From positions 1,035-65,034 of the forward strand of contig BJHT01000005.1 in the NCBI GenBank assembly GCA_014193395.1: a stretch of 64,000 nucleotides of DNA, written 5' to 3'. Positions 1,561 to 38,768 of the stretch are shown one piece after another. A program made the position numbers and the translations under genes. The stretch is from Verrucomicrobiota bacterium (GTDB lineage: Bacteria; Verrucomicrobiota; Verrucomicrobiia; Limisphaerales; BJHT01). Below the pieces are notes generated by a model, which searched no databases, was not told the DNA's origin, and saw only the letters and a list, made by a program, of their open reading frames with translations. Numbering within the stretch: position 1 is the stretch's first letter; each line of letters opens with the position of its first letter.

Positions 1561-2424
1561 TCACGCTTGCTGACGGGCGCGTTCCATCGCCGCGGCGATT
1601 TCGCGTTCCATCACGGGCAAGGGATTGAGCCAGGTCAGCGGGTCGCTGACGGCGGTGACGCGGTTCGTTTTGGGATCCCAATGCACCGGGCCGAAACGCG
1701 CGGGCGCAGGCCGGTCGCGCAGCAGGTGGCCCATCGCGTCGTCCTTGTTGAAATGCCAGAACTCGAAGGGGAAATGGATGAAGCCGTGAGCCTCGACCAT
1801 GGCGGTGATTTCCAGGCGATTGCGGAGCGCGTCGGGTGTGATGAACGGCGAGCGCATGGGCGTGTTCTCGCTCATCTCCAGATAGGGAAATCCGCGCCAG
1901 ACCTCGGAGCCGTCGTCGCGGCGGAACACGGAAACGTCGATGGCTGACCCGGACATGTGCGTGCCGATCTTGGGGATGTTGGCGACGAGCACGAGCGCGC
2001 GGCGCGCGACCATCTCGACCGGCGGCAGGGTGCCGCCATTTTCCCAGATGCACTTGCGGACGATGGCATCGAAAACCTCAGGCTTGCGCACCAACTGGCC
2101 CTGCATCTCGAGCGACCGAAAGGCGTCCTCGATTTTCAAAATCCACCCGCGCGCATTCATGTCGCGGCCCACGTTCACCACGTCACGCACCAGGCTTTCG
2201 CGCATGTAAAACACGCGGTCGAGTCCACCGGCGATCTTGGTCGTGGAGAAAAGCATCTCGACGCCGGCGGCACGCGCGGCGTCCGGCAGCGAGGCGAAAC
2301 CTTCCCCACACTCGCGCACCTCGAAGGGCAGGATTCTCTGCACAAAGTCATAACCGAGCTGCATCTGCTCGGCCCAGTAGGCGCGGCGCGCGGCTTCGTC
2401 GTGGGGGATTTGAGTGGTGTTCAT
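1561..2424 (-). CDS. M15 family D-Ala-D-Ala dipeptidase-like metallopeptidase (VanX/DdpX-like)
   Basis: IEDAFRS..MQ, THMSGSAID (SxHxxGxAxD-like) and EFWHF zinc-ligand motifs; no signal peptide. Confidence 0.8.
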   Translation of the reverse strand: MNTTQIPHDEAARRAYWAEQMQLGYDFVQRILPFEVRECGEGFASLPDAARAAGVEMLFSTTKIAGGLDRVFYMRESLVRDVVNVGRDMNARGWILKIEDAFRSLEMQGQLVRKPEVFDAIVRKCIWENGGTLPPVEMVARRALVLVANIPKIGTHMSGSAIDVSVFRRDDGSEVWRGFPYLEMSENTPMRSPFITPDALRNRLEITAMVEAHGFIHFPFEFWHFNKDDAMGHLLRDRPAPARFGPVHWDPKTNRVTAVSDPLTWLNPLPVMEREIAAAMERARQQA

Positions 2425-2469
2425 AGGGTGGGTTTTTGGGAAATAAGCAACAGACTGCTTGAAAACCCG

Positions 2470-2541
2470 GTTTGGAGTTCCGCGTTTACGCGGCTCGGGC
2501 CTCGTGCGACAAGCGGGCCGCGCAAACGCGGAACTCCAAAC
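2470..2541. repeat. GGAG-type REP doublet (inverted pair)
   Basis: gtttggagttccgcgtttacgcggc (2470-2494) vs gccgcgcaaacgcggaactccaaac (2517-2541); each arm has its own ccgcg..cgcgg hairpin. Confidence 0.85.
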
Positions 2542-2596
2542 TCAGTCCACCGCAGCTCAAAGGATTTTTCCAAACGGTTCATAGATTGCTTTGGTG

Positions 2597-3688
2597 TCAC
2601 GGCTTCAACTTCAGCTCCACCAGATAGATGGCCGTAATAGCCTTCCCCGCCGCATCCTTCTCATGACTTGAATAGTAGGAAACGAGAGCGCGCGTAGGAG
2701 AGAGGGTTACGAAGCCGGGATAGGAGTTGTCGCCTTCGCTGGGGAATTCGGCGAACTCTTGTAACCCATCACCCACGAGCCAGCAGAGCGAGGTCTTCGG
2801 GCCGCGGTCGGTCGTGGTCTTGCGCCCGCCGACGATGGTGTGTTCGCCCCAGCGCGCGAGCAGGGGACCGCCGATGTGGCGGTCGAGGTCTTTGCGATCC
2901 CATTCGAGGTAGGGCGGGCGGGAGCGGTAGAGACGCGCGTTTTTGCGTCCGCCGTGCCGACCGACGGCGAGGACAGAACCGTCTTTCTCGAAGAGGAACG
3001 CGGTCTCGTCACCGGCGGACTCCGCGAAGAAGGCACGCTTTTTCCAGATCAGGCCGTCGTCGCTTTCGAGCATGAGCGCCTGAACCTTTTCACCTTCGCC
3101 CCGGGCATTGATGTCGAAGTCAGGGTAGCGACGACCGCAGAGATAAGCTCGGTCGCCGAAAGTTGCCGCACGCCAGATGTAATGACCGAAGGTGCCTTCG
3201 AGCAGCACGGGGCTATTCCACGCGGTGCCGTCATCGGACCACGCGGCGTAGCCGAGATGCTTGTTTACGTCCCATTCCGTCCGCGGGAGAGGTTTCCCGC
3301 CGGTCCACCAAGTGCCGGAGTAAACGAAGAGCCGGTCGCGGAAGATGAGAAAGTGCGGATCGCGCGTGTCGCGGTCCTTCACGGCGAAACGATGCGCCGG
3401 CTCCCAAGTGGCGCCTTCGTCCTTGCTGCGGAGAATGATCACCGAGGCGGTCGAAAAGACGCCGTGGCCGTCCGGGCAACTGCGGAAGGTGAGGTAGAGA
3501 TGGCCTCGAAACCGGCAGAGGTCGGTGAAGGCGTTGTGCTCGCCATTGTGAAAGGCGCGCCGCACTGGACTGACAGTGACCTGCGGGGGCGGGGCGGCGA
3601 CGGCAGTCAGGGCCACAGCCGCGAAAACCAGCAGCGCCGAAGAGAGCCGCACCAAGGAAGCAATGGAGAGCATACGCATAGGATTCAT
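2597..3688 (-). CDS. Secreted BNR/Asp-box beta-propeller (exo-sialidase-like) protein
   Basis: Signal peptide after MNPMRML; Asp-boxes SKDEGATW, SDDGTAW, SDDGLIW; GDNSYPG. Start 3688 preferred over 3793, which lies inside a repeat. Confidence 0.75.
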   Translation of the reverse strand: MNPMRMLSIASLVRLSSALLVFAAVALTAVAAPPPQVTVSPVRRAFHNGEHNAFTDLCRFRGHLYLTFRSCPDGHGVFSTASVIILRSKDEGATWEPAHRFAVKDRDTRDPHFLIFRDRLFVYSGTWWTGGKPLPRTEWDVNKHLGYAAWSDDGTAWNSPVLLEGTFGHYIWRAATFGDRAYLCGRRYPDFDINARGEGEKVQALMLESDDGLIWKKRAFFAESAGDETAFLFEKDGSVLAVGRHGGRKNARLYRSRPPYLEWDRKDLDRHIGGPLLARWGEHTIVGGRKTTTDRGPKTSLCWLVGDGLQEFAEFPSEGDNSYPGFVTLSPTRALVSYYSSHEKDAAGKAITAIYLVELKLKP

Positions 3689-9367: not shown

Positions 9368-9479
9368 CCTGCCCTCTCTGCGTCTCTTCCCATCTCTGCG
9401 GTGTAATCAGGAAACGCTCCGATCGTAGGGGCGCGGAGTGGAACACCGCAGAGATCGGAAGGGACGCAGAGAGGGCAGG
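9368..9479. repeat. CGCAGAG-family inverted repeat, copy 1
   Basis: cctgccctctctgcgtctcttcccatctctgcggtgt / acaccgcagagatcggaagggacgcagagagggcagg. Confidence 0.85.
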
Positions 9480-27706: not shown

Positions 27707-28078
27707 AACCACGGATAAACACGGATGAAACCGGCACGGCGATGTCCGTCGCCGAACGCGCGGTGTTTGGAGTGCGGGGACTTGTCACCGCTTTGTCGAG
27801 GCGACTTGTCGCCGTCGAACAGCGGGAGGCGCGGATTTGGAATGGGGCGTTCACGGCTCGCGCCAGCGGTGGCGCGCCGGCAAGAAGGGAGCCGGTCGGC
27901 AAGTTTGACGGCGACAAGTCGCCTGCGCAAAAGCGGTGACAAGTCACCGCACTCCAAAACGACCGGGCAGGCGCGCTGTGCGACATAGTCGTCGGCGACC
28001 CGGCTTGTGTTGCGGAACGGAAGGTCGGCGTCGCGCACCCTCTTTCCCATCCGTGTGCATCCGTGCACATCCGTGGTT
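27707..28078. repeat. Nested element: CACGGAT 10-bp-period inverted arms enclosing a GGAG REP doublet (27766-27958)
   Basis: aaccacggataaacacggatg / atccgtgtgcatccgtgcacatccgtggtt; inner tttggagtgcggggacttgtcaccgcttt / aaagcggtgacaagtcaccgcactccaaa. Confidence 0.9.
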
Positions 28079-28117
28079 TTCCAATTCCCATTCCCATTTT
28101 CATTTCGGAGTTCGCGA

Positions 28118-29146
28118 TCAGAAGCGGCCGTCGGTGGTTTCAAAATGCGTGGGCTTGCCAAGGGTCGCGCCGCCTTGGCGGACCCATTGGGCGGTGGCGT
28201 CGATCATTTCTTCGAGCGAGACAATGGGCGGGCCGAAGAGCGCGTAAGAGCGCGTCGCATCCCAGCTCCACACGGTCGCGCCTTCGTGCTCGGCGATGAT
28301 CGGCGCGCGCCCGAACAGATCGCCGAAGCGCTGCGCGAGCCAGCGGATGGACACGCGCTGGAGGCCGGTGACGTTCAACGCGAGCGGCGGCGTGGCGGCG
28401 TGCGCGAGGCACTGGATGGCGCGGGCGTTCGCATCGCCCTGCCAGATGACATTGGCCGCACCCATCGTGACATCGACGGGCTGGCCGCGGGCGACCTTGT
28501 TCGCCACGTCGCAGAGCACGCCGTAGCGGAGATCAATCGCGTAGCAGAGGCGGAAGAGGAGCGTGGGCGTGCCGTTCTGTTTGGCGAAATGGGTGAAGAC
28601 ACGCTCGCGGCCGACACACGAGTTGGCGTATTCGCCGGGCGGACCGAGCGCGTCATTTTCATGCGAGCCGGGGCCATCCGCGCGGACGAGGGGATAAACG
28701 CAGCCGGTGGAAAACACGACGATGCGCGAGCGGGCGAAGCGCTCGGCCACGATGGCGGGGACGAGCGTGTTCATCACCCACGTCAGTTCGGGCGCCTCGC
28801 TGGTGCCGAATTTTTGACCGGCCATGAAAATGACATTGGGCGCGTCGGGGAGCGCCTGGACGGCGGCGCGATCGAGCAGGTCGCACGCGATGGTTTGCAC
28901 GCCGTGGCGCTGGAGTTCCGCGGCGGCGGCGGCTGATGAAAAGCGCGAGACGGCGAAGACGCGCCGGTCGCGGCGGCCGATTTCATCAAGGCCGCGGCGC
29001 ACCATGCGGGCGAGCGTCGGACCCATCTTGCCGCCCGCGCCGAGAACCAGCACATCGCCGTCGAGCGCGCGGAGCGTGGCGAGCACGCCGGGCGTGGGGA
29101 GGCTGAGCTGGTCGTCGAGATCGGCGAGGGTCAGGAGCGGTTTCAT
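28118..29146 (-). CDS. NAD-dependent epimerase/dehydratase family protein
   Basis: GAGGKMG Rossmann motif; FSTGCVY; YANSC. Confidence 0.85.
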   Translation of the reverse strand: MKPLLTLADLDDQLSLPTPGVLATLRALDGDVLVLGAGGKMGPTLARMVRRGLDEIGRRDRRVFAVSRFSSAAAAAELQRHGVQTIACDLLDRAAVQALPDAPNVIFMAGQKFGTSEAPELTWVMNTLVPAIVAERFARSRIVVFSTGCVYPLVRADGPGSHENDALGPPGEYANSCVGRERVFTHFAKQNGTPTLLFRLCYAIDLRYGVLCDVANKVARGQPVDVTMGAANVIWQGDANARAIQCLAHAATPPLALNVTGLQRVSIRWLAQRFGDLFGRAPIIAEHEGATVWSWDATRSYALFGPPIVSLEEMIDATAQWVRQGGATLGKPTHFETTDGRF

Positions 29147-29188
29147 GCAGTGGCAGTCGTGTCGGTGATGGCGGTGATGGCGACGAGA

Positions 29189-30202
29189 TTACTTGGCCGC
29201 GCGCACGGGACGCAACGGCGGCAGCGCGATCAGCTTCTTTTCATCCGCCGCCTCACGCGCCCGCAGCACGACCTCGGTGATGTAGAAGCTGTCGTCCGCC
29301 GTGATGCGCGGGGGGCGGCCGCCGCGGAGGAATTTCACGAACTCGACGAAGATGTTCTCGGTAGTCTCAAACGGAATGCGTTCGGTCCCGGCCTCGGTGA
29401 CGAGCGTGATGGCGTCGTCGCCTTCATTCACTTCGACCACGCCCTTGGTGCCGGTGACCCGCAGGCGGTCATCGCCGTGCGTGGCAGCCTGGACGGGGCG
29501 CAGATAATCCAAACGGGCCGTGACGGACGCGCCGTTGGATAACTCCGCGAGGATCGACGCCTGATCCTCGGTCTCGCCGAATTCGGGCCGGCCACTGCGC
29601 CCATGGAACGCCGCGACGTGCGTGAAATCGAGGCCCGTGACCCAGCGGATGATGTCGAGCGAATGAATGCCGATGTAAGGGATCGTGCCGCCGAGCCGCG
29701 CGCGGCTCTGCAGCCACGCGGGTCGCTCGCCCCATTTGTAAGACTTCTGCGTCGCCACCTGCGAGACCGTGCCGATGCCACCGCGCTGGATGATTTCGCG
29801 GACGCGCGCGTATTTGGGCTGATGACGCAGTTCGAGGAGCATGGTGAGCTGCGACTTGGATTTCGCGAACGCGGCGCGCAGACGCTCGAGATCGGCCAGC
29901 GTGGTGACGAGGGGCTTTTCGGAAATGATGTGAACGCCGCGTTCGAGCAGCGCGAGCAACTGCTCGAGGCGCATCCCGCTCTCGTCGGCGACGCAGCAGA
30001 CATCGGGCAACGTATGTTCGAGGACGTGTCGCCATTCCGCGTAGGCCTGCGCGGCGTGGGACTGCGGGAGGCGTTTCAGGAAGGCCTCGGCGGCTTTGAG
30101 ATTGTTGTCGGACACCGCGACAACCTCGACATCGCCGAGCAGCTTCGCCCCCGCGACGATGGCGGTGACGTGGCCTTTGAGTCCGAGCAATGCGAGTTTC
30201 AT
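29189..30202 (-). CDS. Gfo/Idh/MocA family oxidoreductase
   Basis: HIISEKP; GGTIPYIGIHSLD; GTKG. Confidence 0.85.
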   Translation of the reverse strand: MKLALLGLKGHVTAIVAGAKLLGDVEVVAVSDNNLKAAEAFLKRLPQSHAAQAYAEWRHVLEHTLPDVCCVADESGMRLEQLLALLERGVHIISEKPLVTTLADLERLRAAFAKSKSQLTMLLELRHQPKYARVREIIQRGGIGTVSQVATQKSYKWGERPAWLQSRARLGGTIPYIGIHSLDIIRWVTGLDFTHVAAFHGRSGRPEFGETEDQASILAELSNGASVTARLDYLRPVQAATHGDDRLRVTGTKGVVEVNEGDDAITLVTEAGTERIPFETTENIFVEFVKFLRGGRPPRITADDSFYITEVVLRAREAADEKKLIALPPLRPVRAAK

Positions 30203-30298
30203 CGGTGGGTGACAGGTTTCATGCGGCGGTTTTTGTGGTGCGATGGATAAGACACGGACGCGCGTTGGTTTTCAACCGCGCGACGGGCGGGGGAAAAT

Positions 30299-30324
30299 GG
30301 CAGAAAAATAGGGGGCAGAAAAAT
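30299..30324 (+). repeat. Solo arm of GRC-N5-AAT class (ggcagaaaaat x2, 15-bp period)
   Basis: ggcagaaaaat at 30299 and 30314. Confidence 0.6.
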
Positions 30325-30500
30325 GGCGTGGGGAGCGGGTTGTTCGTCCGCGGGGACCGGCGTGAGTTCTTCGGGCTGTCTGGAAACGTCGGCCCGCGCA
30401 ACAACCACCGGGCACCCAAGCCCCCGCCTCCGGCGGCTACCGCGACCGGGCCAACGCGTGTTTGCCAACCTGAATCTGACCCCCAATCCCCGAAGCGGAA

Positions 30501-30579
30501 TGGGCAAAGGAATGGAGGCAAAGGAATGAAGACAAGAAGTCGCCACGTCCCCATTCCTTTGCCTCCATTCCTTTGCCCA
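30501..30579. repeat. Perfect 28-bp inverted repeat of the GRC-N5-AAT class (ggcaaaggaatg x2, 14-bp period)
   Basis: tgggcaaaggaatggaggcaaaggaatg / cattcctttgcctccattcctttgccca; 23-bp spacer. Confidence 0.9.
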
Positions 30580-30637
30580 CAATTCCGCTGCCCCATTCCC
30601 GTGCGCCCATCGGCAGCGCGCCGCGGGGGTTTTTCCA

Positions 30638-30762
30638 GAGCGCGGCTATGTGCGGAGCGCCAGCCGCAGCAAGTGGTCCGCACTGGACGCCGCGGAATCC
30701 AACGGGTGCCCGCGAGGTTCCGGGGCCGCTGCGGCTGGTCCTCGGCGGACACAGCCGCGCTC
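30638..30762. repeat. GGAG-type REP doublet
   Basis: gagcgcggct...cagccgcagc / gctgcggctg...agccgcgctc. Confidence 0.75.
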
Positions 30763-30775
30763 CTCGGGTTGCGGC

Positions 30776-31549
30776 TCACGCGTGCATCACCTGGCCGCCG
30801 CCGAGGTTGAGGGTCTGGCCGGTGATGTTTTGCGCGTGATCGGAGGCGAGGAAGACCGCCATGGCGGCCATTTCCGCCGGCGTCTGCCAGCGGCCGAGCG
30901 GGGACACTTTGCGGATTTTTTCCTCGGCCCAGGTCGCGTAGTCCTGCCGCTCGGCGGGCGCGAGGCGCGCCTGACCGGCCTGCCAGACGGATTGATTCAA
31001 CTCGGTTTTTACCATGCCCGGCGAGAGCGCGTTCACGCGGATGCCGTGGGGCGCGAGGTCTTTGGCGGCGCACTGCATGAAGTTGATGAGTCCCGCCTTG
31101 GCCGCACTGTAGGGCGGGTCGGTCTGCGAGCCGATCTGGCCGGCGACGGAGACGAGAAACAGAAGCGAACCTTTCCGTCGCGTGATGAGTTTCGGGGCGA
31201 AGGCGTGCGCCACATTCACCGCGCCGAGGAGATTGATCTCCAACACGCGCGGCCAGTCGCCCGGCTCGAGATTCCAGAAGGGAAAACCGAATTTCCCCGA
31301 GCCAACACCGACCGAATAAACAACGTGATCAACCTCACCGAGCCCCGCGGCGAACGCGCGCACCTGCTCATACGAGGTGACATCGCCCGTCACGATGGTC
31401 GTGCCCGCGGACGGCGTGGCGGGGTCGGGCTTGCGGTCGAAGCCGTGGACGCGGCAGCCCTCGGCGACAAACTCGTCCGCGATCGCCCGCCCGATGCCGC
31501 GCGCTGCGCCGAACACGGCGACCGTTTGATTGGCGAGATTCAGTTGCAT
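30776..31549 (-). CDS. SDR family oxidoreductase
   Basis: GAARGIG, YSAAK, IRVNALSPG. Confidence 0.92.
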   Translation of the reverse strand: MQLNLANQTVAVFGAARGIGRAIADEFVAEGCRVHGFDRKPDPATPSAGTTIVTGDVTSYEQVRAFAAGLGEVDHVVYSVGVGSGKFGFPFWNLEPGDWPRVLEINLLGAVNVAHAFAPKLITRRKGSLLFLVSVAGQIGSQTDPPYSAAKAGLINFMQCAAKDLAPHGIRVNALSPGMVKTELNQSVWQAGQARLAPAERQDYATWAEEKIRKVSPLGRWQTPAEMAAMAVFLASDHAQNITGQTLNLGGGQVMHA

Positions 31550-31604
31550 GGCGCGGGACTGTCACAGTCGCGCGGCAGGCAGGCAAGGCGCGCGGCGTTG
31601 ACGC

Positions 31605-31789
31605 CCCTTGTAGGAGTCGAGGTAACGAGACTCTAACCTCCTTCCGCGAACGGTCCGCCCAGACGCACCCCACGCCCGTCTTGAAACCAGGTTCCGGTCC
31701 CACGCGCCTTACCCAAGTCAGTCTTCGAGACTCAGTCCGCCGCTCGCACAGAAAAGGTCAGAGTCTCGTTACCTCGACTCCTACAAGGG
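31605..31789. repeat. GTAG-type REP doublet with perfect 30-bp arms
   Basis: cccttgtaggagtcgaggtaacgagactct / agagtctcgttacctcgactcctacaaggg. Confidence 0.9.
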
Positions 31790-31892
31790 TGGGCGGGGAG
31801 CGCGGTGCGAACGGAATGCGGTGGTGACTTTGGCGAGAGGCCCCGGGAAGATCGGCAGCACTCGATTCCACTGTTGCTCCGCTTTCCAACAC

Positions 31893-31970
31893 ATGAACTG
31901 CCGCGCCTTCCTCGCCACGCTGCCCGTGCTGACCGCGCTCATGGCGGCGCGCCAGGCGCTCGCCGCGTAG
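31893..31970 (+). pseudogene. Orphan signal-peptide-only ORF (25 aa)
   Basis: MNCRAFLATLPVLTALMAARQALAA*; degenerate twin-arginine motif, ends at an AxA site. Confidence 0.45.
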
Positions 31971-32052
31971 GGGGATAAACGGAACGCGTAACCATCCGAA
32001 CTCCACTGGAAATAACCGCCCCGCCACCATCCCCTGCCCTGCCGAAAAAACC

Positions 32053-33366
32053 ATGAGCGCCATCTCCCCATCGCAACCAGTTCACGCCCGGATTTCCGGC
32101 GCATCGTGGGCCATCCTCGCCCTGATGGTCGTGTCGGTGGCGATCAACTACATCGACCGCACGAGCCTCTCGACAGCCGCGCCGTTGCTGGTGCGCGAGC
32201 CGGAGATGGAGATTTCGGCTGCGAAGCTGGGCGTGCTGCTGTCCGCGTTTTTCTGGACCTACTCGTTTCTGCAACTCGCTTCCGGCTGGCTGGTGGATCG
32301 CTACGGCGTGCGCTGGGTGATGGCGATCGGCTTCATCGTCTGGTCGCTGGCCACGGCGGCGACGGGTTTGGTGTACGGGTTCTCCGCGTTGCTCGCGCTG
32401 CGCCTGCTGCTCGGGGCCGGCGAATCCGTGGCGTATCCGTGTTACTCAAAAATCATCGCCGGCAATTTCGCCGAGCATCAGCGCGGACTCGCGAACTCGC
32501 TGATCGACGCGGGCACCAAATTCGGCCCGGCGCTGGGCATTCTCGGCGGCGGAATACTCATGGATCGCTACGGCTGGCGGCCGGTCTTCCTCGTGCTGGG
32601 ACTGGGCAGCCTGCTGTGGCTGCCGGCGTGGTTTAAGTGGATGCCGAGCGGCCACGCGGCGACGCAGACGACCCCGAGCGGCGGCCCCGGCTTCGCGGAA
32701 ATCTGCGCGCAACGGCAGGCGTGGGCGACGTTCATCGGGCACTTCAGCGGCAATTATCTCTGGTATTTTCTGATCACCTGGCTGCCCTCCTATCTGGTGA
32801 AAGAGCGCGGTTTCACCATGTCCCACATGGCTTACGTCGGCGCGCTGGCGTTTTGCGTGACGGGCATCTCGACCATCATCACGGGCACGATCGCGGACCG
32901 GGCGATCACACGCGGCGCGACGCCCACGCGGGTGCGCAAGACCTGCGTGATCCTCGGCCTCGGGCTGGCGACCTCGGTGGTGACGGTGACGATGGTGGAA
33001 GGCACGCAGGCGTCGATGGCGTGCCTGATGTTTGCGTGCATCGCGCACGGAATCTTCGCCTCCAGCCACTGGGCGATTGCGCAGACCATCGCGGGGCCGG
33101 TGGCGGCGGGGAAATGGACGGGGATGCAGAACTGTCTCGCCAACATGGCGGGCGTGGCGGCCCCGGCGATCACGGGCTTCGTGGTGGACCGCACCGGCCA
33201 GTTTTTCTGGGCCTTCGCCGTGTGCTCGGCGGTGGTGCTGACCGGTGCCGCGGCTTACGCGTTCCTGCTGGGGCCGGTGGTGCAACGGGTGTGGGCGTCG
33301 CAGGAGAGCAGCGAGCCGCGGCGTTTCGAGGCCGGAAACGAACAAACGGAAAATGGCAAATTATGA
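32053..33366 (+). CDS. MFS transporter (ACS/sugar-acid type)
   Basis: INYIDRT, GWLVDRYG, LRLLLGAGES; many hydrophobic segments. Confidence 0.9.
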   Translation: MSAISPSQPVHARISGASWAILALMVVSVAINYIDRTSLSTAAPLLVREPEMEISAAKLGVLLSAFFWTYSFLQLASGWLVDRYGVRWVMAIGFIVWSLATAATGLVYGFSALLALRLLLGAGESVAYPCYSKIIAGNFAEHQRGLANSLIDAGTKFGPALGILGGGILMDRYGWRPVFLVLGLGSLLWLPAWFKWMPSGHAATQTTPSGGPGFAEICAQRQAWATFIGHFSGNYLWYFLITWLPSYLVKERGFTMSHMAYVGALAFCVTGISTIITGTIADRAITRGATPTRVRKTCVILGLGLATSVVTVTMVEGTQASMACLMFACIAHGIFASSHWAIAQTIAGPVAAGKWTGMQNCLANMAGVAAPAITGFVVDRTGQFFWAFAVCSAVVLTGAAAYAFLLGPVVQRVWASQESSEPRRFEAGNEQTENGKL

Positions 33367-33389
33367 ACCGAAAATGGGCGGGGGAGGTA

Positions 33390-33528
33390 AACCACGAAAA
33401 ACACGAAAGACACGAAAACAAAGAGCGTCGGCGTGTCTGATTCCGCTCCACACATCGCGCCTGCTCGAAACAAAATCTCGATACCGAGAAGCTTTCCCCT
33501 TTTCGTGTCGTTCGTGTCTTTCGTGGTT
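33390..33528. repeat. CACGAAA 9-bp-period triple-repeat inverted element
   Basis: aaccacgaaaaacacgaaagacacgaaaa / ttttcgtgtcgttcgtgtctttcgtggtt, 27/29; 81-bp spacer. Confidence 0.9.
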
Positions 33529-33548
33529 CCAACTCCGTTTTTGAAAAA

Positions 33549-34232
33549 ATGAAAATTACAACCCACTCCAAGTCCCCGTCCGCGGCAGTCGTCGCCTCAA
33601 CGTTTCGACGCCGCTTTCTGAATTTCGCTTTTGTTTTCGGTCTCGCCGCCGTCTTCGCCGCCGTGGCGATCGGCCGTGCCCAGGAGGCCAAGTTGCTCCT
33701 GCACGAGCGTCCGCTGCCGGCGATTGCCGCGCCGGATTTCAAGGGGCCGCTCGACGCGAGCTTCAGCGTCGCCAAAGGGAAATGGACGCCGCAGGACGGC
33801 GTGCTGCGCGTGCTCGATCTCCCGGAGGAAAAGCACATCCCGGTCCTGCATCACAACGTCGGGCTGGCGGCCGCGGTGATCGAAGTGGAGTTCCTGATCG
33901 AGGGTCCCGGCAGTTTCCTGGTGGGTTGCGATGCGGACAAACACGTCGGCCGCGTGGTCGTGACGCCGACGGCCCTGGGCATCGCGGAAGATTCCGTGAA
34001 GCCCTCGCACACCATCGCGCGGCTGCCGCTGCCAGTGAAACCCGGCGAGTGGCATCGCCTGCGCGTGGAGTGGAAGGGCGACCAGATGGCGGCGAATCTC
34101 GACGGCCACGAACTGCGCGCCCAGCACGCGTTCCTCGCCACGCCCAAGGCCCGGAGCTGGCTGGCCGCCGGCAAATCCGTCCAGGTGCGCAATCTCAAGA
34201 TCAGTGGCGAAAAGACACCCGCGAAACCGTAG
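33549..34232 (+). CDS. Secreted concanavalin-like (DUF1080/LamG-like) beta-sandwich protein
   Basis: Signal peptide; GKW...DGVL; PGEWHRLRVEWKGDQMAANLDG; VRNLKI. Confidence 0.55.
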   Translation: MKITTHSKSPSAAVVASTFRRRFLNFAFVFGLAAVFAAVAIGRAQEAKLLLHERPLPAIAAPDFKGPLDASFSVAKGKWTPQDGVLRVLDLPEEKHIPVLHHNVGLAAAVIEVEFLIEGPGSFLVGCDADKHVGRVVVTPTALGIAEDSVKPSHTIARLPLPVKPGEWHRLRVEWKGDQMAANLDGHELRAQHAFLATPKARSWLAAGKSVQVRNLKISGEKTPAKP

Positions 34233-34242
34233 GCGGAGGTTT

Positions 34243-34273
34243 CACCAAGAACCGACACGGATGGACACGGATA
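34243..34273 (+). repeat. Solo/degenerate CACGGAT arm
   Basis: caccaagaac-cgacacggat-ggacacggat, 10-bp period. Confidence 0.55.
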
Positions 34274-34447
34274 GGGCCGAGGATTCGTACCATCCAGTGT
34301 TCGCCGGCCGAGTGACGGACTGGAGGCTGGTTTCCTCCCGTTTTTATCGCGTCGTGCCGGAGGCGCGAAGCGGAGTTAGCCGCGGGCTGAGCACCACTGG
34401 CTGCCAGCCTGCGCTTCGGCGAAAAGCGCCACGCCCCGCGCTTCTTT

Positions 34448-35536
34448 TCACTTCCCCTTCAGCGGCAGCGCCACGACGGCCTTGCGCCGGTGGGATTCGT
34501 AGATCGCGGAAAACATCTCGACCACGGCGCGCCCGTCTTCGCCGGTCACCAGCGGCGGGCGGGCCTCGCGGATGGCGCATAGAAAATCCTGAATTTGCAG
34601 CGCGTGATAATGCGCGACGGCGTCGATGACTCCGAAGTGCGCGCGGTCGGTGGCCTGAAATTCCGACAGCAGATGCTCCTCACCGGGGATGGTCCAGAGG
34701 TCGTTGAGGGGCGGCTCGGCGATTTTGGAAACGCCCGCGATGAAGGTCGCACCGCGGTCGGTCTCGACGCCGACGGACGCGCCGTTCGCCCCGTGGATAT
34801 GAACTTTGGTGAAGATCCCCGGCCGCTGCGACAAGCTGGTGACAATCGAGCCGAGGCCGCCGTTGCGGAAGGTGAGCGTCGCCACCGCGGTGTCATCCAC
34901 CTCGATGGAGGGATGATTCAGATTGCTCCAGCGGCCGCTGATTTCCGCCACGTCGCCCATGAACCAGCGCAGCAGATCGAGCTGATGCGGGGACTGATTG
35001 ACCAGCACGCCGCCGCCTTCGGTCGCCCATTTTCCGCGCCACGGATCGGACTCGTAATAGGCCTGGTCGCGCCAGCTAAACATCTGAAACACGCCGAGCA
35101 CCGGACGGCCAATCTTCCCGGCGGCGATGGCGGCCTTCATGCGCAGCACCGGCTCGTAGAAACGCCGCTGGCTCATCACGCCGAGGGTCACGCCGGATTT
35201 TTGCGCCGCACCGAGCATCGCATCGCAGTCGGCGAGGCTCGCGGCCATCGGTTTCTCCACCATCACATGCAGTCCTGCCTGTGCGGCCAGCACGGCGCTC
35301 TCGGCGTGCAGCGGGTGCGGCGTGCAGATGAACACGGCCTCCGCGCCGGATTCCCGGAGCATCGTCGGCGGGTCGCGAAAGGCGCGTCCGCCATGCCGTG
35401 CGGCGAAAGCTTCCGCGCGGTCGAGACTCGGATCGCACACCGCGACCAGCTTCGACTCGGGCAACGCCGCCAGTGCGGCCGCGTGGAGGCCGCCGACTTT
35501 TCCGCAACCCACCAGTGCGGTGCGAACGGGTTTCAT
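34448..35536 (-). CDS. Gfo/Idh/MocA family oxidoreductase
   Basis: GCGKVG, HVMVEKP, GGGVLVNQSPHQLD. Confidence 0.92.
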   Translation of the reverse strand: MKPVRTALVGCGKVGGLHAAALAALPESKLVAVCDPSLDRAEAFAARHGGRAFRDPPTMLRESGAEAVFICTPHPLHAESAVLAAQAGLHVMVEKPMAASLADCDAMLGAAQKSGVTLGVMSQRRFYEPVLRMKAAIAAGKIGRPVLGVFQMFSWRDQAYYESDPWRGKWATEGGGVLVNQSPHQLDLLRWFMGDVAEISGRWSNLNHPSIEVDDTAVATLTFRNGGLGSIVTSLSQRPGIFTKVHIHGANGASVGVETDRGATFIAGVSKIAEPPLNDLWTIPGEEHLLSEFQATDRAHFGVIDAVAHYHALQIQDFLCAIREARPPLVTGEDGRAVVEMFSAIYESHRRKAVVALPLKGK

Positions 35537-36450
35537 CTTTGTGGAGCGGGAAGGTCGCCGAAGTAGCGGTCCACCATGCGATGCAGATAGGCCAGTGACT
35601 CCGCCATTTCCTCCATGCCGTTCATGCCGTCCTCGATGCTAATCCACCCGCGATAGTGGTTTTTCGCGAGCAAGGTGAAGATCGCGGGATAGTCATTCAG
35701 GCCCTTGCCCACGACGCCGTGTTTCAGTTTGGGCGAATAGCCGAGCGTGCCGTCGCTTTGACGCAGTTCGTCGAGCGTCGCGCCCGCGGTGAGTGAGCGG
35801 TCGCTCGCGTGCATGCTCACCACGCGGTCCTGCACGGCCACGAGCCAATCGAGGGGATCGTCGCCGGCGACGATGGCGTTCGAGGGATCGTACTGCACCC
35901 CGAAATGGATGCGGTCGGGAATGGCGGCGAGAATTTTCAGGAACACGTCTTTCTTCTGCGCGAACTCGGGGAATTTCCAGAAGCCGTCTTTGTAATGATT
36001 TTCGATCCCGAGAATCACATCGCACTCGCGGGCCACCGGCAGCAACTCGTGGATGCACTCGACCACCCATTCAATGCCGTCCTCGATGCGAACCTCCGGC
36101 CGCCGCTGCCCGCTGAGCACGCGACACACCGCGCGCGGGCCGCCCAGACGCCGGGTGACGTGGATCATCTTGGCCTCGTGCTCGACGGCCCGCTGACGCG
36201 CTGCGCGCTCCGGTTGCGTGAAGTCCGGCGAGCAGCAGAGCATCGGCATCGCAAAGCCAGCGGCATGAATGGCCTCGCCGACCGAGTCGATGTAGCCATC
36301 CTCAAGGCTGGTGAAAAAGCCCTCATACATTTCCAGACCGTCCGCCTCCAGCGTTCGGGCCATGGCGATCCAGTCGAACACGGACATCGTCCGTTCGCCG
36401 GCGATTTTCTCGAGATAGCATTTGGGAAAGGCGGAGATTTTCGGTTTCAT
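35533..36450 (-). CDS. Sugar phosphate isomerase/epimerase (AP_endonuc_2 TIM barrel)
   Basis: GIENHYKD, YDPSN, MHASD, GWISIE metal ligands. Confidence 0.85.
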   Translation of the reverse strand: MKPKISAFPKCYLEKIAGERTMSVFDWIAMARTLEADGLEMYEGFFTSLEDGYIDSVGEAIHAAGFAMPMLCCSPDFTQPERAARQRAVEHEAKMIHVTRRLGGPRAVCRVLSGQRRPEVRIEDGIEWVVECIHELLPVARECDVILGIENHYKDGFWKFPEFAQKKDVFLKILAAIPDRIHFGVQYDPSNAIVAGDDPLDWLVAVQDRVVSMHASDRSLTAGATLDELRQSDGTLGYSPKLKHGVVGKGLNDYPAIFTLLAKNHYRGWISIEDGMNGMEEMAESLAYLHRMVDRYFGDLPAPQR

Positions 36451-36528
36451 GAAAGCGACGGCATCCTGCCGATGGCGCCGGTGAGGGCAAGGGGGTTCCC
36501 GCCACGCGGGGCGGTGCGCGGTGGCCGC

Positions 36529-36552
36529 GGAGTGCGGCCGTCCCCGGCCGCA
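36529..36552 (+). repeat. Solo GGAG REP hairpin
   Basis: ggag-tgcggccg-tccc-cggccgca. Confidence 0.55.
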
Positions 36553-36702
36553 GCAACGTCCGCACGCACGGGCGCTGTTGGATCACCCGACGTCCCGCTG
36601 CGCGCCAACTTTCTGCCGCCATTGCCAACGCTAATCATGCGGTTCCACACCCACCCACCTCAAATTTTGGAGCCGTAATTCCGCCACGGACCGCTGAGTT
36701 TT

Positions 36703-36761
36703 GGCTGACGAATGGGGACTGACGAATCGGGGCCGAGTTCGCCGGTCCCCATTCGTCAGTC
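36703..36761. repeat. GRC-N5-AAT class inverted element (gactgacgaat), partly degenerate
   Basis: ggctgacgaatggggactgacgaat / gtccccattcgtcagtc. Confidence 0.7.
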
Positions 36762-36872
36762 ACAATTCCAGGCCGGTTCTGGAAAGGCCGTTTCGGCACC
36801 GTCGCGGAACGACAATGGAAACGAAGCTACGGTGATGGAGATTGAGAGTCGGCCTGCTCGCCGCCAGCACCG

Positions 36873-36982
36873 CTCTGCGGTCTTTCCCAACTCTGCGGTG
36901 TTCTGTGTTTGCTTCCGGGCGACCGGCCGCGGCGGGAGGGGAGGCTGATCAGAACACCGCAGAGATTGGAAGGAACGCAGAG
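36873..36982. repeat. CGCAGAG-family inverted repeat, copy 2
   Basis: ctctgcggtctttcccaactctgcggtgttctg / cagaacaccgcagagattggaaggaacgcagag. Confidence 0.8.
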
Positions 36983-37102
36983 GGAGGTGGGCAAAATCCG
37001 ACGTCCTCGGTGAAGGATCACAACCAGTTGCACGCCCCGCACCCACAGCTTTCCGGAAAAAACGCGCTGAACTGCGCACCGGCCAAAAGAGGCTTTTAGA
37101 AT

Positions 37103-37188
37103 TGGTGGTAGGAGCTGGATTCGAACCAGCGAAGGCGTAAGCCAGCAGATTTACAGTCTGCCCCCGTTGGCCACTTGGGTATCCTACC
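37103..37188 (-). tRNA. tRNA-Tyr (GTA), CCA encoded
   Basis: ggtaggatacccaagtggccaacgggggcagactGTAaatctgctggcttacgccttcgctggttcgaatccagctcctaccacca; long variable arm. Confidence 0.97.
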
Positions 37189-37273
37189 GATCACCGGCCC
37201 GGCGATGAAGGCGCAGACTAGGCCAGACGTGCATCGCCTTGTCAAACGTCCTCTCGCTCCCTAGCGTCCCGCC

Positions 37274-38614
37274 ATGTTTGATTCACTTTCCGGCAAGCTC
37301 CAGAACGTTTTCCGCAACCTCCGCGGCCTTGGAAAAATCTCCGAAAGCAACGTCAGCGACTCCCTCCGCGAGGTCCGCATGGCCCTCCTCGATGCCGACG
37401 TCAATTTCAAGGTCGCCCGCGATTTCATCGAGACCGTCAAGACCAAGGCCATCGGCGAACACGTCGTCCAGAGCATCCAGCCCGGCCAGCAGATCATCAA
37501 AATCATCCACGACGAACTCGTCGCCCTCCTCGGTGCCACCCACGCCGGCCTGACGCTCAGCGGCAACCCCGCCTGCCTCATGATGGTCGGCCTCCACGGC
37601 TCCGGTAAAACCACCTCCAGCGGCAAGCTCGCCCGTCTCCTCCTCAAGCAAGGCCGCACGCCCCTGCTCGTCGCCGCCGACGTCTATCGCCCCGCCGCCA
37701 TGGACCAGCTCGAGACCCTCGGCAAGCAACTCGAAATCCCCGTCTTCACCCTCAAGGGCGAAACCGACGTCCTCAAAATTGCCCGCCAGGCCCTCGACAC
37801 CGCCCGCGCCACCAACCGCAACACCCTCCTCTTCGACACCGCCGGCCGCCTCCAGATCGACGAACCCCTCGTCCAGGAACTCGTCCGCCTCCGCGACCTC
37901 ATCAAACCCCAGGAAATCCTCCTCGTCCTCGACGCCGCCACCGGCCAGGAAGCCGTCAACGTCGCTACCCATTTCGACAAGGCGCTCAACATCACCGGCG
38001 CCATCCTCACCAAGCTCGACGGCGACGCCCGCGGCGGTTCCGCCCTCAGTTTCAAATCCGTTACCGGCAAGCCCATCAAGTTCATCGGCACCGGCGAAAA
38101 ACTCGACGACTTCGAACCCTTCCACCCCGAGCGCATGGCCTCGCGCATCCTCGGCATGGGCGACGTCGTGAGCCTCGTCGAGCGCGCCACCGAAGCCATC
38201 AGCATGGACGACGCCCAGCGCATGGAAGAAAAGATGCGCAAAGGCGAGTTCACCCTCGATGACTTCCTCGAACAGCTCCGCCAGATGAAGAACATGGGTT
38301 CCCTCGAAAAACTCGTCGGCATGTTGCCCGGCGTCGGCGACCAGATGAAAGGCATCGACTTCAACAAGAGCGAACGGGAATTCCGCCGCATGGAAGGCAT
38401 GATCTGCGCCATGACCCGCGGCGAGCGCGCCAAGCCCGCCATCCTCAACGCCAAGCGCCGCATCCGCATCGCCAAAGGCAGCGGCGTCACCGTCGCCGAA
38501 CTCAACAACCTCCTCAACCGCTTCAATCAAATGCAGCAGATGATGAAGAAGATGGGCAAGTTCTCGAAAATGATGGCCAAGATGGGCGGTGCCATGCCGG
38601 GGATGATGCGGTGA
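37274..38614 (+). CDS. ffh: Signal recognition particle protein Ffh
   Basis: GLHGSGKTT, DVYRPAA, DTAGR, TKLDGDARGG, RILGMGD, Met-rich M domain. Confidence 0.98.
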   Translation: MFDSLSGKLQNVFRNLRGLGKISESNVSDSLREVRMALLDADVNFKVARDFIETVKTKAIGEHVVQSIQPGQQIIKIIHDELVALLGATHAGLTLSGNPACLMMVGLHGSGKTTSSGKLARLLLKQGRTPLLVAADVYRPAAMDQLETLGKQLEIPVFTLKGETDVLKIARQALDTARATNRNTLLFDTAGRLQIDEPLVQELVRLRDLIKPQEILLVLDAATGQEAVNVATHFDKALNITGAILTKLDGDARGGSALSFKSVTGKPIKFIGTGEKLDDFEPFHPERMASRILGMGDVVSLVERATEAISMDDAQRMEEKMRKGEFTLDDFLEQLRQMKNMGSLEKLVGMLPGVGDQMKGIDFNKSEREFRRMEGMICAMTRGERAKPAILNAKRRIRIAKGSGVTVAELNNLLNRFNQMQQMMKKMGKFSKMMAKMGGAMPGMMR

Positions 38615-38660
38615 GAAGGGGCGGACGCAATCATTGCATTCGCAGACACTCCCAGTTAGC

Positions 38661-38768
38661 ACCACTAACCGGCACTAACTGGCACTAATAAAATGCTCGG
38701 AGCGACTTAATTTCGTGGATGCGGCTCAGCCCGGTTCTCTTTAGTGCGGGTTAGTGCCGGTTAGTGGT
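38661..38768. repeat. CACTAAC 10-bp-period triple-repeat inverted element
   Basis: accactaaccggcactaactggcactaa / ttagtgcgggttagtgccggttagtggt, 26/28; 52-bp spacer. Confidence 0.9.

Follow-up and report, generated by a model that had tools for sequence, protein, structure and literature searches.

The nearest known system to the palindromes described here is that of the repetitive extragenic palindromic (REP) sequences, their doublets (REPINs) and the associated RAYT enzymes, in which a single-copy small nuclease gene lies between inverted repeat copies, tens of gene-less doublets occupy intergenic DNA, several paralogous enzyme/repeat pairs occur per genome, and the copies sit mostly at gene 3' ends and are conserved in place. 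The same can be said of the intergenic palindromes that we describe from a Verrucomicrobiota bacterium, three of which, together with a lone arm, lie in a stretch of 64,000 nucleotides (nt) of its contig C5 (hereafter the window), and which we connect with small cassettes encoding GxxExxY proteins. The enzyme here is, however, a PD-(D/E)XK protein of ~125 aa and not an HUH/Y1 enzyme, whilst the arms are phased heptamer arrays with no GTAG/CGTC tag and no self-folding REP hairpin per arm; membership of the REP/REPIN-RAYT system was rejected, both of its defining features (the tag with its self-folding unit, and the HUH enzyme) having failed. The phased-arm type is not described in those parts of the GTAG/CGTC repeat paper (PMC3733652) considered here. 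Miniature inverted-repeat transposable elements (MITEs) are likewise small, non-coding and multi-copy, share inverted ends with a gene-bearing relative, and show nested insertion and presence/absence polymorphism. Our elements are short and non-coding, carry terminal inverted repeats and occur in many copies, and a parent with the same ends exists on contig C257, its sole gene encoding a PD-(D/E)XK nuclease rather than a demonstrated transposase. They differ from MITEs in having no recognised transposase and no established target-site duplication, in ends that are built of sub-repeats, in interiors far more diverged than the ends, and in a gene-bearing form of only ~0.45 kb.

By analogy with these two systems, the best reading of the window elements is that they are non-autonomous, REPIN/MITE-like derivatives of a nuclease cassette. 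That they are gene-less relatives of GxxExxY cassettes we hold with a probability of about 0.9, and that the arms would be phased binding sites for the encoded nuclease, which would move the cassette and its derivatives, with one of about 0.6.

The source genome (G000; a 7.9-Mb assembly of 730 contigs with 64% G+C) is one of four genomes in its genus, the congeners being G001, G002 and G003. Places of interest in the window were read directly and the whole window was scanned for inverted repeats (Table 1). The three elements and the lone arm, which begins 11 nt past a stop codon, are all intergenic, and every paired element starts with (a/c)ACCAC and ends with GTGGTT(t)(t)CC. The arms of the GAAA element are 29 nt long, 93% (27/29) complementary and 81 nt apart, and contain three CACGAAA units each, repeating every 9 bp; those of the TAAC element, which sits between two co-directional genes, are 28 nt long, 93% (26/28) complementary and 52 nt apart, with CACTAAC/T three times per arm, once every 10 bp. 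The GGAT element has 28-nt arms, 79% complementary and 316 nt apart, the left one beginning AACCAC-GGAT and comprising two to three units at a 10-bp period and the right one ending GTGGTT, and its interior holds a nested, unrelated palindromic module of ~195 bp (27766-27959). An earlier note, made from the letters of this DNA, had reported the four items at these places with the same arm matches, ACCAC start and GTGGTT end, and direct reading confirmed them. One correction is needed: in the GAAA family the inverted repeat extends about 20-30 nt outside AACCAC, which is therefore not the outermost end. Because the family carries this outer inverted repeat, the window GAAA copy probably fills the whole 182-nt gap (about 33367-33548), with a stop codon (33366) on one side and an ATG (33549) on the other. 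It is kept at this site in a ~96.5%-identical strain, seen among the metagenome contigs from four runs, which are short and break at repeats; the orthologous site of the GGAT element is occupied in G002 and decayed in G003, and the TAAC element has its ortholog at G003:C16:100901-101008.

A scan of the whole genome for ACCAC followed by a 4-nt core, 2-4 nt, and CAC with the same core, using the reversed genome as control, placed the CAC-core pattern far beyond chance: 231 matches were found, 196 of them with the cores GAAA (72), TAAC (63) and GGAT (61) and only 6 with the next core, against 20 scattered matches in the control. GAAA, TAAC and GGAT are the only families in the genome that combine an AACCAC anchor with CAC-NNNN units at a 9-10-bp period. 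When arms were counted by family consensus with up to 6 mismatches, TAAC had 119 arms and 48 pairs, mostly of 109-110 bp, GAAA had 117 arms and 44 pairs, mostly of 138 bp, and GGAT had 123 arms and 15 pairs of 123-487 bp, 93/123 arms being unpaired at the threshold used; with about 120 arms per family, the further copies that the earlier note had called for are thus present. Most GGAT arms are followed, like the window copy, by the unrelated ~195-bp module, each half of which has two perfect 14-bp palindromes (GGTGACTTGTCACC and GGCGACTTGTCGCC types). G002 and G003 hold this module dozens of times; the G003 ortholog of the window GGAT element lacks it, and in G000:C4 it splits a TAAC arm with a target duplication of ~30 nt. 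The exact TAAC arm variant is shared by the 4 genomes of the genus and was absent from 37 other genera of the order. Some elements are clustered or stand head to tail in arrays, with a 120-bp period at G000:C337:6452-6949 and further cases on G150:C32 and C51 (L126, L127), and three GAAA elements and one GGAT element lie inside 1.2 kb of G003:C31 (L047). What lies between neighbouring elements is ordinary: a GH42-like gene, a pair of toxin and antitoxin genes, and an open reading frame (ORF) of 1159 aa.

Constraint on the elements lies in the arms. Between paralogous copies, arms and interiors are 88.5% and 39.6% identical in the TAAC family and 86.2% and 43.0% in the GAAA family, the heptamer cores being nearly invariant and the variation falling on two linker positions in each unit. 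Change in one arm of an element is independent of change in the other: within TAAC elements 11 changes were matched between the arms against 162 changes in one arm, arm-to-arm identity at variable positions equalled the chance expectation, and at a polymorphic linker position all four combinations were present. No link was seen in TAAC copies between orientation or linker variant and the direction of gene transcription. Integron attC sites are similar in being imperfect palindromes with conserved ends and variable centres at gene 3' ends, whereas the elements here show no sign of structure-preserving covariation, two of their three families are without R''/R' GTTRRRY cores, and the copies are dispersed rather than arrayed. 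The attC assignment was rejected on the CACGAAA and CACGGAT cores, which have no AAC/GTT, and on the spread of copies over hundreds of contigs; intI was not searched for.

The connection with a gene came from the phylum, of which 301 sampled genomes were scanned with the pattern AACCAC-N7-CAC-N7-CAC and its reverse as control. G000 gave 157 matches against 7, and in dozens of genomes belonging to other classes the counts were 10-85 against 0-3, with the cores GGAT, GAAT, AGAT, TAAT, AAAT and AGAG. The matches in two well-assembled genomes, G138 and G150, were mostly small palindromes with two arms (60-125 bp), in part arrayed in tandem, and two arm pairs ~430 bp apart enclosed a ~125-aa ORF encoding a GxxExxY protein (TIGR04256, PF13366). 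In the source genome PF13366 has nine matches, all on contigs other than that of the window, in keeping with the earlier note's statement that the window holds no such gene. The best of them, C257:8086-8430, lies inside a GAAA arm pair (C257:8006-8479). Its 124-aa product scores 139.2 bits against TIGR04256 (cut-off 35; 7e-41) and 140.6 bits against PF13366 (cut-off 22; 4e-41), and these cut-offs are also passed by the G150, G003 and long G000:C14 proteins. In the C257 cassette, AACCAC directly follows the stop codon of the neighbouring gene, the last unit is continued by the ribosome-binding region and a GTG start, and the stop codon of the ORF is followed by the inverted arm. Arm pairs 0.6-6 kb apart included no gene-bearing ones in G000 or among the listed G003 GAAA arms, and the C257 cassette was missed by the arm-pair search because it has only two units per arm. 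What the earlier note had mentioned for other genomes, namely GxxExxY PD-(D/E)XK genes flanked by similar arms, exists in the source genome itself. Its matching of cores to paralogous proteins is supported too, each window family having a cognate gene within the genus: GAAA in G000 and G001, TAAC in G003:C38 and G002:C102, and GGAT (with CACGGAT/CACGGAA arms) in G001:C211 and G002:C508. At the locus of the G003 TAAC gene, G000 has other DNA. A CGCGGAT-armed GxxExxY cassette lies upstream of a gltD-like gene at G138:C6:4269-4607 and G150:C20:78700-79041 (L147, L150), and is stably inherited, since it occupies the same place in two genera. At one G283 locus (L167) the left arm is in the reading frame, so that the start of the protein, MNHEIHEPHEK, is encoded by AACCAC-GAAA units.

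In order to quantify the association, a gene was counted as having arms if one heptamer recurred in phase two or more times on both sides of it, in inverted orientation (score of at least 4), or, more strictly, in at least five copies altogether (score of at least 5). Sixty further genes from the phylum and the earlier loci gave 67 testable genes from about 50 genomes, and random G000 genes served as control. Inverted phased arms were present at 51/67 GxxExxY genes and at 2/503 random genes, and at the higher score at 45/67 and 0/503 respectively. At the level of genomes, PF13366 was found in all 46 with at least 8 pattern matches and in 121 of the 255 others (Fisher 1e-13), the 46 spanning about 20 families, related genomes not being independent.

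The heptamer core co-varies with the phylogeny of the protein, which the earlier note had proposed to test. A tree of 50 GxxExxY proteins falls into two clades (SH-aLRT 94), of which clade A has the cores GAAA, GGAA, GAAT, GGAT, TAAC and AGAA and so takes in all three window types, and clade B has AGAG, GGAG, GAAG, CAAG and AAAG, plus ACAGGAT; on this tree the core label changes 25 times, whereas none of 1000 shuffles gave fewer than 32 changes. More telling than this label count is the constancy of the core across phyla. Among the 80 nearest relatives of the C257 protein on one-genome-per-species contigs, 79 were testable (63-84% identity), from Verrucomicrobiota, Planctomycetota, Kiritimatiellota, Desulfobacterota, Acidobacteriota and Calditrichota, and arms were kept in 61 of the 79, almost all as CACGAAA, CACGGAA or CACGAAT, with 2-3-nt linkers that differ freely. 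The nearest relative comes from a Limisphaerales metagenome-assembled genome. Further afield, a Bacteroides finegoldii plasmid carries a clade-B gene with CACAGAG-type arms, placed between radA and the gene that follows it, and a Treponema copy has a single inverted CACGGAT unit. Relatives occur in 8 of 72,556 plasmid records, all predicted to be non-mobilizable, and the phage records searched held none.

Among 38 aligned GxxExxY proteins G26, E29, Y32, E39, D69 and K81 are invariant and E79 nearly so. The catalytic motif is intact (invariant D…E-x-K), and sequence and structural model predict a minimal PD-(D/E)XK nuclease: the AlphaFold2 model has a pLDDT of 95.3, and in Foldseek it comes closest to Cas4 SSO0001 (E 1.4e-4, TMq 0.60), lambda exonuclease and archaeal Hjc. 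Searches of the PDB by sequence or profile returned no solved homologue, and PADLOC gave no meaningful match, the best having an E value of 0.006 on a partial stretch. Deposited records annotate the family solely as 'GxxExxY protein', and the PD-(D/E)XK survey, in its entry for PF13366 / TIGR04256, lists the function as 'unknown' (PMC3424549).

Elements are present or absent between congeners, and filled, empty and differently filled orthologous sites exist. The site of the full cassette, after an E1-beta-like gene, occurs in three states, with the GAAA cassette in G000 (C257), a 12-nt spacer in G002 (C615), and a different palindrome with CAGGAGA/ACAGGGG arms in G003 (C46), which suggests that this operon spacer is an insertion hot spot right after a stop codon; the filled and empty sites whose comparison the earlier note had called for are thus found in related genomes. 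On contig C690 a GAAA copy lies in the loop of a GGCAAAGGAATG-family palindrome of which 14 uninterrupted paralogous copies exist, with implied ends 19-30 nt outside AACCAC. We examined 85 G003 elements against G000, of which 58 had no syntenic flanks on one G000 contig, 1 had flanks that were too short, 19 formed orthologous pairs and 7 had no recognisable pair, and G003 elements are absent at matching G000 sites at L030 and L055. In the 19 pairs the arms are 91.2% identical (1038/1138), a value inflated somewhat by the choice of pairs by arm similarity, and the interiors 79.2% (828/1046; Fisher p = 1e-15), the flanking, mostly coding DNA being ~90% identical. No exact borders or duplications could be read from the G000/G003 comparison, in which the spacers around missing elements are replaced, because intergenic DNA is largely replaced at ~90% coding identity. 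Beside a TAAC element on G003:C28 (L044 about 1690-3070) lies a 1.3-kb segment, absent from G000, that encodes an AbrB-type antitoxin and a PIN-domain protein, as judged from ORF translations only.

The full cassette of ~0.45 kb consists of a left array of two to four heptamers (C-R-C-NNNN), one per helical turn, which starts at an (A)ACC(A/G)C anchor and runs into the ribosome-binding site and start codon, of the gene for a ~125-aa GxxExxY protein in the centre, and of a right array, an inverted copy, just after the stop codon. In the mechanism that we propose, protomers of the encoded nuclease would recognise the heptamers along one face of the double helix, the inverted arrays would come together, and cleavage at or near the anchors would move the cassette and, in trans, two-arm units without the gene too. 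Such gene-less units would have multiplied to about 50-60 per family in G000, where they sit in short intergenic spacers mostly just downstream of genes. Several direct repeats per end, inverted between the ends and implying an oligomeric synaptic complex, are likewise found in the TnsB sites of Tn7 and in the ends of Mu, Tn402 and the IS607 family, and Tn7 cleavage involves a PD-(D/E)XK enzyme, TnsA. The sites here differ in being 7 bp long, one to each helical turn, against ~20 bp, in having no DDE or serine recombinase partner, and in elements an order of magnitude smaller. The earlier note had placed the window elements as non-autonomous members of an uncharacterised mobile or recombination system. 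Gene-bearing versions, further copies and filled and empty sites stand in its favour, whilst arms acting as binding sites and movement driven by the nuclease are what we infer.

Several points weigh against this mechanism, to which the selection of ortholog pairs given above also belongs. Protein binding to the arms, the cleavage site, the chemistry of transposition or recombination, and action in trans are all putative. The G000 assembly (95% complete, 730 contigs) yielded no cognate TAAC or GGAT gene, though both families persist there with conserved arms, and 16/67 GxxExxY genes are without phased arms, some having both arms on the same side or an inverted repeat without phasing. Neither the nested copy on C690 nor the filled/empty site of C257 and G002 has a clear target-site duplication, the flanks being old and diverged, and the ends implied by the nested GAAA copy disagree with the gene-bearing copy, whose limits are AACCAC and GTGGTT exactly. 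Among the seven sites without a pair in G000, two lost one unit, one is interrupted by the 195-bp module and four are absent or replaced. Co-inheritance of linked DNA alone could give the co-variation of core and protein. Finally, and unforeseen by the earlier note, genes for four-helix-bundle proteins have analogous arms: inverted tandem-repeat arms abut the start and stop codons of 19/30 such genes (L318-L347, four genomes), counted over a wider range of periods (7-14) without a matched control. At G000:C44:22881-23347 (L308) an arm pair of 467 bp, built of GTGTGAG units, encloses such a protein (TIGR02436, weakly Avd-like). The units around four-helix-bundle genes are shorter and more numerous than those of GxxExxY genes (6-9 bp, up to 9 copies per side, e.g. 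GACAGGG ×8), and a shared third factor or an RNA-level role could explain the grammar of both kinds of arm.

An RNA-level role is the main rival. On this view the 5' and 3' arrays would pair into a long stem around the ORF, with the effect of insulating, processing or silencing the transcript of the cassette; gene-less copies would be hairpins that terminate transcription or stabilise mRNA, and reading of the arms by the protein would play no part. The position of the arms, which reach up to or into the start codon and resume no more than a few nt after the stop codon, fits such a role, as does the recurrence of the layout around four-helix-bundle genes, a family first named after 23S rRNA intervening sequences. 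Those intervening sequences, with their four-helix-bundle ORFs (S23p, TIGR02436, Avd-like), resemble our elements in having a small ORF inside stem-capable inverted repeats, and are excised by RNase III; ours are found between protein genes and not in rRNA, and have a nuclease as cargo. Gene-less copies, too, have the expected placement, 43/45 TAAC copies being downstream of at least one gene (21 between convergent, 22 between tandem and 2 between divergent genes by crude gene calls, against 17%, 68.5% and 14.5% of background intergenic regions respectively), and the arms are conserved in G000 in families that have no cognate gene there. Against it, there are no compensatory changes between arms, linker positions are often unpaired, and the heptamer sequence itself, not pairing alone, is kept across phyla and tracks the protein clade. 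A T-run (TT) stands after the right end in only 17/46 TAAC and 2/34 GAAA copies, a terminator consensus scan that is blind to long-loop hairpins showed no excess (16 vs 12.5 ± 4.1), and a scan of the elements against Rfam returned no match beyond sub-threshold miRNA-like hairpins. We regard the RNA role as unlikely, though the strongest of the alternatives.

Next comes a separate recombinase or transposase, encoded elsewhere and shared, that would recognise the arms, with the GxxExxY and four-helix-bundle genes as its cargo. Such an enzyme would account for a grammar common to two unrelated cargo families and for families that persist in G000 without a cognate gene, and G000 does have nine Y1-transposase (RAYT-like) genes. 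The core, however, tracks the phylogeny of the cargo protein even between phyla, and the two cargo families differ in repeat style (heptamer and linker at 9-10 bp in 2-4 copies, against units of 6-9 bp in up to 9 copies). No arm pair 0.6-6 kb apart encloses a transposase in G000 or, among the GAAA arms listed, in G003. The Y1 genes moreover have different, REP-like repeats of their own: Y1_Tnp gave 9 matches in each of G000 and G003, none of the 12/18 loci fetched has tandem ACCAC-type motifs, and each of the five G000 loci examined has its own structured inverted repeats of 36-60 nt. We regard the shared enzyme as improbable, and more so than the RNA role. As for arms that are chromosomal operators or nucleoid-protein sites of a host regulator (MraZ/AbrB-like or OmpR-like) and unrelated to mobility, the genome's own mraZ operator is built alike around a GTG core, with five AGTGGG(A) boxes that recur every 10 bp ahead of the sole mraZ (G000:C23, L065 about 1140-1195), but its boxes differ in sequence and place, only one MraZ gene exists, and copy number, nested insertion, site polymorphism and strict GxxExxY linkage are unexpected of operators, so that this explanation is very improbable indeed and the MraZ operator was rejected as alike in architecture only.

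The inverted-repeat scan of the window also returned palindromes of other types. The CGCAGAG core is shared with many GxxExxY genes of the second protein clade, arms of this type are found around genes in G001, G138 and G150, and one precedes a 275-aa ORF of two tandem GxxExxY domains on G000:C90 (L317 318-1145, minus strand), which matches TIGR04256 with 197 bits in two stretches. On G000:C14 (L158 1072-1896, minus strand) a palindrome of the GGCAAAGGAATG family immediately precedes the gene for a 274-aa protein that has a PDDEXK_3 domain at its N-terminus, and the sister palindrome families GACAGAAGAATGG, GGTAAAAGATGGG and GAATCTGCGG precede paralogous proteins of ~275 aa; in these PDDEXK_3-domain genes the entire palindrome, with a 13-14-bp period, stands just upstream. 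The repeat-array layout is thus a general feature of small-gene cassettes here, because four-helix-bundle and ~275-aa PDDEXK_3 genes carry repeat arrays too. A segment of 494 nt (30277-30770) that includes the window copy of the GGCAAAGGAATG family is replaced by 86 other letters in one metagenome strain. At 31605-31789 lie 35-nt inverted arms that start with GTAG and belong to a REP-like family, mostly 88 bp long, and a tRNA gene (37106-37188, minus strand) is the sole above-threshold Rfam match in the window.

Table 1. Phased-arm elements and related palindromes in the window (positions count from its first letter).
Feature	Position	Strand	Remarks
GGAT-family gene-less element	27707..28078		arms 27707-27734 and 28051-28078
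GAAA-family gene-less element	33390..33528		arms 33390-33418 and 33500-33528
TAAC-family gene-less element	38661..38768		arms 38661-38688 and 38741-38768
Lone GGAT-type arm (…AACCGACACGGATGGACACGGATAGGG)	34243..34276	+	between convergent genes
CGCAGAG (CTCTGCG)-type phased-arm palindrome, anchor CACCGCAGAG	9368..9479		inverted-repeat scan
CGCAGAG-type palindrome, second copy	36873..36982		inverted-repeat scan
GGCAAAGGAATG-type palindrome, 13-bp period	30497..30579		inverted-repeat scan

The phased-array nuclease cassette is a widespread kind of DNA cassette that is apparently undescribed; we found no description of the association between arms and GxxExxY genes in the literature searched, the curated NCBIfam/InterPro texts and subscription journals being outside its scope. 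Its recognition gives a testable role to the large unknown-function family PF13366 / TIGR04256, and the coupling of protein to array predicts a DNA substrate for each paralogue that can be read from the genome. It offers a parallel to REP-RAYT built on a different enzyme fold, and accounts for a sizeable part of the intergenic palindromes of Verrucomicrobiota and their relatives, which break assemblies and may shape operon expression. The naturally diversified pairs of protein and 7-bp site are possible DNA-recognition modules, and cultured carriers exist (e.g. the Bacteroides finegoldii plasmid copy), so that the idea is open to direct test. A bolder proposal, which we advance tentatively and consider somewhat doubtful, is that GxxExxY proteins are the mobility enzymes of an unrecognised, minimal class of mobile element, in which a PD-(D/E)XK nuclease alone, assembled on inverted arrays of heptamers in helical phase, would excise and reinsert a ~0.45-kb cassette and its gene-less derivatives, with the four-helix-bundle 'intervening-sequence' proteins as a second type of module following the same repeat-array logic. 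If true, this would be a new mechanism of transposition or homing, and would explain two large families of unknown function across many bacterial phyla.

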